IMG/VR virus record: IMGVR_UViG_2531839477_000015
Location: 1 to 18,808 of that record
Source of the DNA: a virus
Taxonomy: Duplodnaviria > Heunggongvirae > Uroviricota > Caudoviricetes
Length of the DNA: 18,808 nt
Strand: one strand, 5' to 3'
Shown here one piece after another: positions 9,144-15,586 of the stretch (its first letter is position 1; the number at the start of each line of letters is the position of its first letter). A program made the position numbers and the translations under genes. The notes under the pieces are model-generated. The model ran no database searches, had not been told where the DNA came from, and saw only the letters and a program-made list of their open reading frames with translations.

Positions 9144-9449
9144 TCAATCGTAATAAGCTGGAATTGATTTTCCGCGTTGCTTCTGGCGGCCTGAACAAGT
9201 CACACCCATTTCACTGCGTGGCTTGCGGTAGTAAATACGGTTCTGTTTACGCTCGACTTCTTCTGCCTTCTTGCAGCGAAGGCTTCCGAGTGATGCTGCT
9301 TTATCTGCTCTGACGCAACCAGAGAGCTTTAGCGCAATTTTTCGTGCCAGTCGCTGCTCTTGCATTGCCTGTTCACGTTGATCCTGTCTGCGTGCTCTGC
9401 GGCGATTTCTGGCGTTATCGTCAGCCAGATATGTAATGACTACTGTCAT
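9144..9449 (-). CDS. N: Antitermination protein N
   Basis: N-terminal arginine-rich motif NARNRRRARRQDQREQ and C-terminus KPRSEMGVTCSGRQKQRGKSIP matching lambda N (...KPGERGITCSGRQKIKGKSIP); GGAGG 5 nt upstream; nutL lies in its leader. Confidence 0.85.
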   Translation of the reverse strand: MTVVITYLADDNARNRRRARRQDQREQAMQEQRLARKIALKLSGCVRADKAASLGSLRCKKAEEVERKQNRIYYRKPRSEMGVTCSGRQKQRGKSIPAYYD

Positions 9450-9557
9450 GTTGACCTCCGATGATTGACTTTGGCGGTGACGCGCCGGGTGCTTATCTTC
9501 CGGTTGCCGTCGTGCAGCTGCACTTCACGTCACCCCAAAACCAACTACTCTTTGGTT

Positions 9558-10203: not shown

Positions 10204-10920
10204 TCAAACCAGCCTTAGTTTTGTCTCAATTGCAACGCCTATAATCTTGCAGTTTCCATTGATTGGCACGAGAGGCCATGCAGGATTAAGTCCCTTGAGG
10301 TATTTATTTCCGCCGTCGATTATCAGCTTCTTGAATGTTGCTTCGTTAGAGTCAGAAAGTTTTGCTATGACCAAGCTGCCGTTGATCGCCTCCCTTCCGG
10401 TATCGAAAAGAACGAATGTTCCCTCTGGAATGCTTAACCCAACCGGTGCCGTCATTGAATCACCTTCCACTTTAAGCCAGAACGCATTACCTTGAATATG
10501 CGCGTCAGACTCAAGCCAAACATCTATGTCTTTAATGGTGTATGGTTCGCATGCTTCACACCACGAGCCAGCCTGGATACTGCTTAACACCGGATACCTC
10601 TTTCCTGCTCTGTATTCCCCTGCATACCTTACGTTGGCATCGCTCTTAAGGCTTTCTGCCTGTTCTGCAACCTTGGCAGCAATTGACTGGCTAAAATCAG
10701 CAATTGAGACTTGCAACAGTCGTGCAAAACCAGATGCAACCTCAACGTTTAGCGCGTTTCTGCCATTAAGATAATGCCCTACCGCTCCTTGGGTGATACC
10801 CAGTTCATCCGCGATTGAGTATTGGGTTATCCCCAATTCTTTCTTTTTTGACTCATACAAAGCCTTAAGCCGCTTAGCGTCTTCGAGCTGTTCTGTCGTC
10901 AGTGATTTTTTATTTTCCAT
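10204..10920 (-). CDS. cI: CI-type prophage repressor (HTH + LexA/S24-like autocleavage domain)
   Basis: N-terminus LTTEQLEDAKRLKALYESKKKELGITQYSIADELGITQGAVGHY parallels lambda CI; C-terminal domain with conserved Ser/Lys context (WLKVEGDSMTAP ... TFKKLI); divergent from cro across the operators. Confidence 0.93.
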   Translation of the reverse strand: MENKKSLTTEQLEDAKRLKALYESKKKELGITQYSIADELGITQGAVGHYLNGRNALNVEVASGFARLLQVSIADFSQSIAAKVAEQAESLKSDANVRYAGEYRAGKRYPVLSSIQAGSWCEACEPYTIKDIDVWLESDAHIQGNAFWLKVEGDSMTAPVGLSIPEGTFVLFDTGREAINGSLVIAKLSDSNEATFKKLIIDGGNKYLKGLNPAWPLVPINGNCKIIGVAIETKLRLV

Positions 10921-10997: not shown

Positions 10998-11026
10998 TTG
11001 TTCATGGTTAATAACGGAGAGTGCAT

Positions 11027-11221
11027 ATGATTCGAATGACACTTGCCGATTACGCCAAAATCCATGGACAGGCTAAAGCAGCCAGTGACTTTGGTGTAAT
11101 CCAGTGCGCTATCAGCAAGGCCATTCTGGCAGGCCGTAACATTATGGTTACGGTAAAGCCTGATGGCAGTGTGATTGGAGAGGAGGTTCGTCCTTTCCCA
11201 AGCAACAAGAAAAACAAATAG
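11027..11221 (+). CDS. cro: Cro repressor
   Basis: [33 protein letters not shown]...[13 protein letters not shown] parallels lambda Cro (…YQSAINKAI…EEVKPFPSNKK); ATG 11027 with ACGGAGAG upstream. Confidence 0.85.
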
Positions 11222-11227
11222 TAACAC

Positions 11228-11270
11228 CGCTCTTTAACAGTCATGGTCCTCATTCCCGCCGAAATGCGGG
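11228..11270 (+). promoter_or_regulatory. nutR (boxA CGCTCTTTAACA + boxB CCCGC-CGAAAT-GCGGG)
   Basis: boxA 11228-11239 matches the boxA consensus; boxB hairpin 11255-11270; located 7 nt after the cro stop. Confidence 0.75.
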
Positions 11271-11329
11271 AATACAACGCGCATCAGTTGGTGCGCATAA
11301 CTTCTTATTTGTTAAGGAAATACTTACAT

Positions 11330-11608
11330 ATGCAACTTACAAGTACTCGCAAGAAAGCGAATGCAATTACAAGCAACATCCTAAATCGAATTGCTGTACG
11401 TGGTCAGCGAAAGGTTGCTGATGCATTAGGGATCAATGAATCACAAATTTCGCGATGGAAAGACAGCTTTATCCCAAAGATGGCCATGCTTCTGGCTGTT
11501 CTTGAATGGGGAGTTGTTGATGATGAGATGGCGAGACTTGCTCAGCAGGTGGCATCGATTCTCACAAAAGAAAAACGCCCAGCTGTTGGTAGCAGTCTGG
11601 ACGCTTAA
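11330..11608 (+). CDS. cII: CII transcriptional activator
   Basis: Start trimmed to ATG 11330 (upstream AAGGAAATACTTACATATG matches the lambda cII initiation region as recalled); ...SQISRWKDSFIPKMAMLLAVLEWGVVDDEMARLAQQVASILT parallels lambda CII. Confidence 0.9.
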   Translation: MQLTSTRKKANAITSNILNRIAVRGQRKVADALGINESQISRWKDSFIPKMAMLLAVLEWGVVDDEMARLAQQVASILTKEKRPAVGSSLDA

Positions 11609-11668
11609 GCACACTGTGTTACGCCAAGTAACAGGAGTAATTATGCCAGGACAAACCAAGCAAGTAAA
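11567..11668 (-). ncRNA. OOP-like antisense RNA (putative)
   Basis: Minus-strand hairpin CGUCCAG...CUGGGCG + UUUUUCUUUU inside the cII 3' end (plus about 11570-11600), analogous to the lambda oop terminator; possible promoter -35 TTGTCA (plus 11687-11692) and -10 TTTACT (plus 11663-11668). Confidence 0.3.
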
Positions 11669-12047
11669 CACCGGCATAAAGGCCGGTGACAAGTTCGAAA
11701 CCGTATATCCATTTATCTTCGTATGCACAGATTATCAGTCTTATGACGGCAACGTGCATACCGATGAGCGCTGGATTGGCGGTTGTCACAAAAATTATGA
11801 GCCAGCCGATTGTGGTTATGGTGATCAGTGTTTTTACACCGCTGATGCTGAAGGAAAGAGAATTCTTGAGGTTCTGGCAGTGGTGGAAATGCCAGGCAAC
11901 TGGCAGCGCAGAATCATTTATTCGTGCCACCTCATAGAGCCTGAAGGCAAGGAGAGGAAAGGAAGGAAGGCTTACACAGTCACCGAATCAAGGTTTTTAA
12001 AAATGTCTACTGGTTACTTCGCTGATTACGAAGTAGAGGAGGCTTAA
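11643..12047 (+). CDS. Hypothetical Cys-rich protein (134 aa) inserted between cII and O
   Basis: ATG 11643 with AGGAG 5 nt upstream (the track ORF is over-extended into cII); Cys/His-rich segment [40 protein letters not shown]; no family recognised. Confidence 0.6.
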
Positions 12048-12193
12048 TGACAAAACCACTCAGTCCTTACCAGGACAAAATTCACAAACACATACTACGT
12101 GATCGCTTCCTGTCCAGCTTCAAGCAGCCTGGTCGATTCCGGGCTGAGTTGGAAAAAGTGAAGCTGATGCAGAAGGAGAAAGGTCATGAGTAA
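12047..12193 (+). CDS. Small ORF (48 aa), translationally coupled
   Basis: Not in the track. ATG 12047 overlaps the upstream stop (TAATG) with GAGGAGG 5 nt upstream; translation [48 protein letters not shown]; 3' end overlaps the O-like start. Confidence 0.4.
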
Positions 12194-13046
12194 TCTTGCA
12201 ACCGTAACACATTTAAGGCCTTCACAACGGCCTGTGGAGCGTCGTGTGGCAGAAGTTGAAGATGGTTATACCCGTCTTGCAAATGCCCTGTATGAAGAGC
12301 TTATCGGCGCAGATTTAACGAAAAATCAGAGCAAGGTTGCCCACGCCATATGCCGTAAAACATACGGCTACGGTAAAAAGATGGATCGCATCTCTGATAG
12401 TCAGTTAGCTCAAATTACCAGGCTGCCAAGACAGAAGGTAAACAAGGCCAAGAATGAGCTTATCGCGATGAAGGTTATCCTTCGCGAAGGCCAGCAAATC
12501 GGGCCTAACAAGAACATCGAGGAATGGCAAATAGAAGGGTGTCACTACTCTGGTGATAATGTCACTGCATTGGTGACAAAAAGTGTCACCAAAACGGTGA
12601 CAGCGCTGTCACCAAAACAGGGACACACAAAAGAAACTATTACAAAAGAAAAAAGAAATAATAAAAACACTATGTCCGAAAGTGTTCGGACGGAGTGTGA
12701 AAAATCACATGACCGTCACGAAGAAACCGACAAGGCATTCGAGGAAATATTCTGGTGTGCAGGCATGCGGAAAGCCGGGAAGAAAAACGCAGCTTCGGCA
12801 TTCAGAACACAGTTCAGGGAATGGCGTAAAACTACCAGGGGTACGGCAAGCGAGTTTGCCACGATGCTGGCAGAAGACATCGCATGCAGGAATGGTAAGC
12901 AGTTCGGATTCGACAGGTTGTTACCATCGAGCTACCTGAACGGTCAACGCTGGAACGACGAGAAGCCAGAAACTATTCAACCACAATCCAAACCATCATC
13001 CGCAATCACCGTATCGAAAACTGGCTACGTGTTTTTCGACAGGTGA
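12186..13046 (+). CDS. Replication initiator, lambda O-like N-terminal domain with unrelated C-terminal domain
   Basis: N-terminal region [58 protein letters not shown]...GPNKNIEEW parallels lambda O; iterons inside the gene; C-terminal half not O-like. Confidence 0.85.
12551..12672. repeat. Putative ori: iteron cluster plus AT-rich tract inside the O-like gene
   Basis: Six alternating copies of GGTGACA/TGTCACC-type heptamers between 12551 and 12622 (tggtgataa, tgtcactgc, ttggtgacaaaaa, gtgtcaccaaaac, ggtgacagcgc, tgtcaccaaaac), followed by the A-rich tract 12628-12672. Confidence 0.6.
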
Positions 13047-15554: not shown

Positions 15555-15586
15555 AGGCCTGCAGGTAATCGCAGGCCTTTTTATTT
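15555..15586 (+). terminator. Intrinsic terminator (tR2-equivalent) after the replication genes
   Basis: Perfect 8-bp stem AGGCCTGC/GCAGGCCT (15555-15562 / 15571-15578), 8-nt loop, then TTTTTATTT. Confidence 0.8.

Follow-up and report, generated by a model that had tools for sequence, protein, structure and literature searches.

A candidate OOP/M3-type antisense RNA gene at the 3' end of cII in a lambdoid Escherichia coli prophage

OOP RNA of phage lambda is a 77-nt leftward transcript with a 5' pppG as its first base, and its promoter, pO, is inactivated by replacing ATTAT at 38684-38688, the complement of the -10 element (PMC3349717). OOP lowers cII expression in an RNase III-dependent manner (Krinke and Wulff, as cited in PMC12197685 and PMC3985674), and pO activity, by interfering with pR, also influences the replication of lambda (PMC3985674). 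A 2025 review gives OOP as known for lambda and the Stx phages (PMC12197685); oop together with pO has been described in 23 lambdoid phages, with a 33-bp linker, ACTGGATCaATCcACAGGAGTaATTATGaCAAA, that is at least 90% conserved (PMC3349717). In a lambda/P22 hybrid, divergence begins at -19 (38694), which implies that the -35 regions of the two phages differ and that the -10 element is common to both (PMC3349717). The P22 oop RNA is 63 nt long by small-RNA sequencing and ends in GGCUUUUCUUU (PMC13397905), and prophage BTP1 makes a transcript at the OOP position (PMC7067206). The phi80 record carries a 60-nt minus-strand ncRNA designated "M3 RNA; homolog of lambda oop RNA", and this M3 RNA is a known substrate of RNase P (PMC5499578, PMC11143913, PMC10731613). 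(In the lambda records NC_001416 and J02459 oop is absent among the features listed; the coordinates used here are those given in PMC3349717 and agree with the sequence.)

The window, by which is meant the whole 18.8-kb (18,808-nt) stretch of DNA that was analysed, represents the early region of a lambdoid prophage of E. coli. Rightward of cII it has a gene for a 134-aa protein, a DUF2740 gene and an O-like replication gene, in that order (Table 1). HK620 is the closest phage on both flanks and is without the 134-aa gene, for which a Pfam search gave no match; at the DNA level this gene is 87% identical to HK639_53, which comes after the M3-like RNA in phage HK639, and it has further homologues in a Hafnia phage (76%) and in Klebsiella phages (75%). 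(The PHROG label of the DUF2740 gene, "tail protein", looks like a mislabelling because the gene lies in the replication region.) Of 5426 complete E. coli genomes, just two carry the whole arrangement, and the prophages of both are 100% identical to the window across 11560-11675; prophages identical over this stretch are those of E. coli CFSAN061770 and MS 115-1. In the RefSeq record of E. coli CFSAN061770 just the two flanking protein genes are annotated at the identical sequence.

Several other features of this early region are of a familiar lambdoid kind. Between cro and cII, a boxA-like CGCTCTTTAA (11228-11237) and a hairpin, TTCCCGC/GCGGGAA (11253-11272), are found on the plus strand; nutR of HK620 is annotated between the same two genes (its 9423-9468). 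The 5' part of cII contains GCAA-N6-GCAA on the plus strand (11363-11376; TTGC-N6-TTGC on the minus strand), which resembles the CII-binding repeat of lambda pRE. Three 19-nt palindromic repeats in the O-like gene (TGTCAC-N7-GTGACA, spaced 23-24 nt; 12560-12625, plus strand) are probably origin iterons. They lie ~900 nt from the pO-like promoter described below; the lambda iterons are about 350 nt from pO, by our own reckoning.

Table 1. Genes around cII and predicted elements of the candidate RNA gene (positions in the window)
Feature	Position	Strand	Remarks
cI	10204-10920	(-)	
cro	11021-11221	(+)	
cII, putative antisense target	11330-11608	(+)	92 aa; Pfam Phage_CII, E = 4e-43
U-run UUUUUCUUUU	11575-11566	(-)	complement of CII codons T-K-E-K
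Predicted OOP/M3-type antisense RNA, ~62 nt	11571..11632	(-)	both ends predicted
Terminator hairpin	11573..11606	(-)	10 outer pairs, bulged A, 3 inner pairs, loop CUACCAA
5' stem-loop GUUAC-UUGGC-GUAAC	11618..11632	(-)	predicted fold
Extended -10 element TGgCATAAT, predicted	11640..11648	(-)	promoter scan; aligns with the lambda pO -10
-35 element TTTACT (4/6) of predicted pO-like promoter	11668-11663	(-)	17 nt upstream of CATAAT; same in HK639
134-aa gene	11643-12047	(+)	PHROG 30464, function unknown
DUF2740/hkaW-like gene	12047-12193	(+)	
O-like replication gene	12186-13046	(+)	

Sequence comparison makes it very probable that the minus strand at the end of cII holds a gene for a small RNA of the OOP/M3 family, known from lambdoid phages. 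An OOP-like antisense RNA had been proposed at this place in a preliminary description made from the sequence of the window; the kind of RNA is upheld by homology, but neither the promoter nor the RNA size that was assigned to it is. The predicted RNA lies on the strand opposite to cII, before the next rightward gene, with its 3' end inside cII: it covers the last 38 nt of cII (including the stop codon) and 24 nt of spacer, with perfect complementarity to the rightward pR transcript over 62 nt. Its start is predicted to be G11632, by analogy with lambda, where transcription begins at G38675, 7 nt after the -10 element; this 5' end would be one base short of the Shine-Dalgarno sequence (AGGAG) of the next gene. 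The 3' end probably falls within the U-run, at ~11571, as judged from the ends of M3 RNA (GGGCUUUUU) and P22 oop RNA. Lambda geometry thus gives an RNA of ~62 nt in place of the 80-90 nt originally suggested. The z-score of the whole-RNA fold is modest (-1.8 to -1.9).

The predicted promoter reads, on the minus strand, TTTACT-17-TGGCATAAT-TACTCCT-G; the corresponding lambda sequence is TTGAGT-17-TGTCATAAT-GACTCCT-G, with 38675 as the final G, and CATAAT, the 7-nt spacer and the G align base for base. CATAAT (11645-11640) is the complement of ATTATG, that is, of the start codon of the 134-aa gene and the three bases that precede it, and the upstream TG (11648-11647) complements the last two bases of the second codon. 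The -35 element overlaps codons 7-9 (11663-11668). In alignments with lambda, HK620, phi80 and HK639, the window shows a -10 element of the pO type that overlaps the downstream start codon and is followed 7 nt on by the predicted RNA start. A promoter scan lists TTTACT, 17 nt and CATAAT with its upstream TG. Promoter-like patterns of this description are no rarer than chance (3 sites found against 5.3 expected from shuffles), so that the weight of the promoter assignment comes from homology, and ACAGGAGTAATTATG could in part owe its conservation to the translation start of the downstream gene (Shine-Dalgarno sequence and start codon) and not to the promoter. LexA control has been claimed for lambda pO; by eye, there is no LexA box (CTGT-N8-ACAG) at the promoter here, CTGT and ACAG being 13 nt apart.

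Might the pO-like promoter be inactive, so that the site is only a leftward terminator, or a relic, that stops stray antisense transcription from the replication genes and makes no dedicated small RNA? The -35 element has just four of six consensus bases and the -10 element begins with C, as one would expect of an inactive promoter. A good -35 element is, however, unnecessary for σ70 promoters with an extended -10 element, and the TG that makes this -10 element an extended one has been retained in 44 of the 46 unique promoter/gene combinations, even though TG was outside the pattern used for the search. The ATG inside the -10 element serves as start codon for about 12 unrelated genes, and retention of TG means that the second codon of whichever gene follows the RNA gene is almost always NCA (44 of the 46 contexts, giving N-termini MT, MS, MP and MA); an inactive promoter would hardly be kept despite such a constraint on unrelated genes. 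Moreover, the same type of promoter is active in lambda (PMC3349717, PMC3985674), and transcripts of the expected size have been found in P22 (PMC13397905) and BTP1 (PMC7067206). A site that terminates and does not initiate is accordingly considered improbable, and the locus is taken to be an RNA gene with its own promoter.

The placement of that promoter and of the RNA start is supported by two further relatives. A distant DNA search with 11560-12060 leads to HK639, and a search with the HK639 element leads on to phi80. The HK639 match, 87% identical from 11611 onward, lies under a feature annotated as "M3-like RNA", and the window is nearly identical to HK639 from the -35 element through RNA position 22. 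On its minus strand HK639 has the same -35 element, the -10 element TGCCATAAT, and GTTACTTGGCGTAACACAGTGT beginning exactly at the annotated 5' end. The first 22 nt of the predicted RNA are matched at 22 of 22 positions by the HK639 M3-like RNA and at 21 of 22 by phi80 M3 RNA, and G11632 is homologous to the annotated 5' ends of both. The transcribed 5' end is thus homologous to that of a characterised member of the family, M3.

In the preliminary description, TTTACT was read as the -10 element of a promoter whose -35 element was TTGTCA, 18 nt farther upstream; an RNA starting from there would be ~80-90 nt long and would cover the translation start of the 134-aa gene (Shine-Dalgarno sequence and start codon). 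The two hexamers are where they were said to be (TTGTCA at 11692-11687, TTTACT at 11668-11663), they share 9 of 12 positions with the consensus, and TTTACT is conserved in HK639. As a -10 element, on the other hand, TTTACT is without the A at hexamer position 2; it is rejected by the promoter scan, in which it is absent as a -10 element. In all homologues the hexamer at its position is the -35 element, 17 bp upstream of a conserved CATAAT or CATACT (TTGAGT, TTGAGA, TTGATA or TTTACA are found there, likewise with 17-nt spacing). TTGTCA is replaced by CTGTCA in HK639, and where other genes lie downstream the coding sequence at its place is wholly different. The homologue of G11632 is the start of M3 RNA, M3-like RNA and lambda OOP alike. 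The promoter had therefore been placed ~25 bases too far upstream, and a start from TTGTCA and TTTACT is highly improbable; the idea that the promoter lies inside the 5' end of the 134-aa gene is true of the -35 element (11668-11663), but not with the hexamers as they had been assigned. (A hairpin, CACCGGCCTTTATGCCGGTG, followed by TTTACTTG, is found at 11669-11688 on the minus strand, just upstream of the -35 element and inside the 134-aa gene. It was considered as an upstream terminator and rejected, the pairing not being maintained in HK639; it is probably due to chance.)

The RNA predicted to start at G11632 would end at a G+C-rich hairpin followed by a U-run. On the minus strand the terminator reads GCGTCCAG-A-CTG-CTACCAA-CAG-CTGGGCGT, then TTTTTCTTTT: a 13-bp stem (11606-11593 paired with 11585-11573) with a 7-nt loop, which spans the final 9 codons of cII and the stop codon. 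The pairing of CGTCCAG (11603-11597) with CTGGGCG (11582-11576) and the U-run at 11575-11566 had been pointed out before and are confirmed, the full fold being longer than was described. The 45-nt terminator segment has a predicted folding energy of -16.8 kcal/mol (z = -3.3; 2 of 200 shuffles are as stable), approximately equal to that of lambda tO (-16.7 kcal/mol). A rule-based terminator scan of the window missed this site because it allows neither a bulge nor loops of more than 8 nt, and was replaced by a fold-based scan of both strands. In the 18.8-kb window, that scan finds only 6 sites with a hairpin and a U-run of at least 8/10, of which the hairpin at the end of cII is the most stable. 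(Other strong sites are at 15578 on the plus strand, with -15.8 kcal/mol, and at 2718 and 12667 on the minus strand, with -12.7 and -14.8 kcal/mol, respectively; 12667 falls inside the O-like gene, which is on the other strand.) Past the hairpin at the end of cII, the plus strand lacks a U-run, which implies that the terminator acts leftward only.

Since the terminator lies within a protein-coding sequence, its relation to the CII codons has to be considered. With the CII residues held fixed, 2-3% of synonymous versions match the stability of the fold and 6-12% keep a 9/10 U-run, but fold and U-run occur together in only 0.04% (about 4e-4) of them. It had been proposed that the RNA be given up if the hairpin were explained purely by CII codon conservation; this is not the case, and the CII amino acids do not account for the hairpin and U-run. 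A locus without any RNA element, the hairpin being a matter of CII codon conservation and CATAAT part of the ribosome-binding context of the next gene, is extremely improbable: the T-run does complement lysine and glutamate codons and ACAGGAGTAATTATG does include a Shine-Dalgarno sequence and start codon, but, besides the rarity of the combination among synonymous versions, CII tails are wholly different between alleles and yet every one encodes a hairpin, the hairpin is intergenic in phi80, HK639 and KO-TP1, and the TG upstream of the -10 element belongs to no translation signal. (The phi80-type hairpin is outside the cII reading frame, and coding therefore cannot maintain it there.)

The extent to which the elements of the predicted RNA gene are conserved was examined in about 200 IMG/VR loci, 80 of them retrieved through the CII protein and 120 through the 22-mer. 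In these there are 22 distinct terminator hairpins (10-16 bp, -11 to -20 kcal/mol), all with a U-run behind them, and a further group, of the KO-TP1 type, with a weaker U-run; predicted RNA lengths range from 61 to 79 nt. In the allele group of the window, base changes that retain pairing are found in two loci: CUG/CAG has become UUG/CAA in one (L092), and a U.G pair has become U-A in the other (L176). The CII tails that the hairpins encode are wholly different (RPAVGSSLDA, APKNGEFFEA, PQDCGNSFEA, PQTSGNSFRA, RPAATERSEQIQMEF). An analysis of 23 M3-type alleles with MAFFT and RNAalifold recovered only the 5' hairpin, which is invariant in these alleles, so that covariation speaks neither for nor against it. 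Since the terminator stems lack sequence homology and were out of register in the MAFFT alignment, terminator hairpins were tabulated allele by allele.

Pairwise alignments bring out a mosaic structure. The segment 11668-11611 is of the HK639 type. Klebsiella phage KO-TP1 has exactly the same hairpin loop and inner stem, CTGCTACCAACAGC (11596-11583); in that phage the hairpin is intergenic, and the RNA is confined to the spacer, ~15 nt beyond a 180-aa cII of another type. Leftward from GGGCGTTTTT the window has lambda-family cII sequence, and identity with HK620 stops near 11580. (Among the IMG/VR loci, CII tails, which are the hairpins, are combined with various CII bodies and with either kind of RNA 5' end (for example in L092, L094, L176, L193 and L199); the joint of this reassortment is the U-run, that is, the T-K-E-K codons.) It is conceivable, though we would put it forward only tentatively, that the RNA gene is itself a recombination joint between a promoter and first 22 nt of the HK639/phi80 type, a hairpin whose loop and inner stem are those of KO-TP1, and a lambda-family cII, with processing of its RNA by RNase P as a further possibility. 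If so, the last 9 residues of CII would be the antisense of an imported terminator, and modules consisting of a terminator and a CII tail would freely exchange CII bodies at the U-run. The RNA may be processed by RNase P, by analogy with phi80, because it carries the 5' end of M3.

Searches of Rfam give no match at the site at the gathering threshold, and a permissive search yields only chance-level similarities (E values of 3.3 to 9.4; STnc310 and ctRNA_p42d are among those at the terminator). In a control, lambda oop and phi80 M3 were also unmatched at E up to 1; the silence of Rfam is uninformative because known members of the family are missed as well.

If the locus functions as lambda oop does, RNA polymerase would start leftward at TTTACT, 17 nt and TGgCATAAT, overlapping the ribosome-binding site and ATG of the gene to the right of cII, begin transcription at ~G11632, and stop at the hairpin and U-run in the last codons of cII, generating a ~62-nt RNA with two stem-loops. 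By analogy with lambda OOP, the duplex of this RNA with cII mRNA would be cut by RNase III, lowering the level of CII and shifting the outcome of infection towards lysis. Firing of the promoter against the convergent pR may also modulate transcription into the replication genes. That this phage makes the RNA, where exactly the RNA begins and ends, and how it acts on CII are extrapolated from related phages.

The importance of the locus is mainly one of annotation, in that a conserved regulator of the lysis/lysogeny decision is unmarked at the CFSAN061770 locus. Beyond this, the extended -10 element of pO constrains the second codon of whichever gene lands rightward of it (NCA, 44/46), and terminator hairpins, which are at the same time the C-terminal tails of CII, are exchanged separately from the CII body and from the 5' end of the RNA. 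Neither the codon constraint nor the reassortment of tails alters the accepted picture of OOP.

It remains to compare the predicted RNA with the described members of the family. An alignment with lambda oop, which had been called for in the preliminary description, brings the promoter, the start and the 3' arm of the terminator with its U-run into register; the transcribed 5' part cannot be aligned (GUUGAUAGAUCCAG... in lambda, GUUACUUGGCGUAAC... here). In both, the CATAAT -10 element and its upstream TG overlap the ATG of the next gene, which is O in lambda and the 134-aa gene here, and the RNA starts with a G one base before the Shine-Dalgarno sequence. Both RNAs are predicted to fold into two stem-loops, and lambda tO and the terminator of the window are placed on the same CII codons (K-K/E-K-R-P-A) with GGGCGTTTTT in common, which bears out the parallel with the lambda oop terminator that had been drawn at the outset. 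Lambda OOP is, however, longer than the predicted RNA (77 nt, as against ~62 nt) and overlaps cII by 55 nt in place of 38 nt. Of the 33-bp linker conserved among lambdoid phages, the window matches approximately 21 bases by our count, and only its core, ACAGGAGTAATTATG with an added CA, is retained; this linker is a search criterion and not a functional definition (PMC3349717).

The oop RNAs of P22, HK620 and BTP1 resemble the predicted RNA in size (~63 nt), in position and in being antisense to a cII of the same family (the cII DNA of HK620 is ~95% identical to the window up to ~11580). They differ from it in the terminator stem and the CII tail (APKNGEFFEA or PQDCGNSFEA, compared with RPAVGSSLDA here) and in their 5' part (GUGGAUUGAUCCAG...), and they are directly followed by hkaW/DUF2740 and not by a 134-aa gene. 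With phi80 M3 RNA and the M3-like RNA of HK639, in contrast, the predicted RNA shares its 5' part: the promoter layout is common to phi80, HK639 and the window, HK639 also has TTTACT as its -35 element and a 134-aa gene, the three RNAs are predicted to fold into the same GUUAC/GUAAC hairpin at the 5' end, joined by a linker to a terminator, and the two known RNAs end in UUUUUCUUUU, as here. The RNAs of phi80 and HK639 are 60 nt long and wholly intergenic, ~15 nt past the stop codon of a different, 180-aa cII, and so are antisense to the spacer only, whereas the terminator here is a different hairpin inside a lambda-family cII; the long helix has 15 continuous pairs in M3 and 13 pairs with a bulge in the window. 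On sequence grounds, the locus is thus a new allele of a known family; its 5' end is closest to that of phi80 M3, and its terminator is placed most nearly as lambda tO is.
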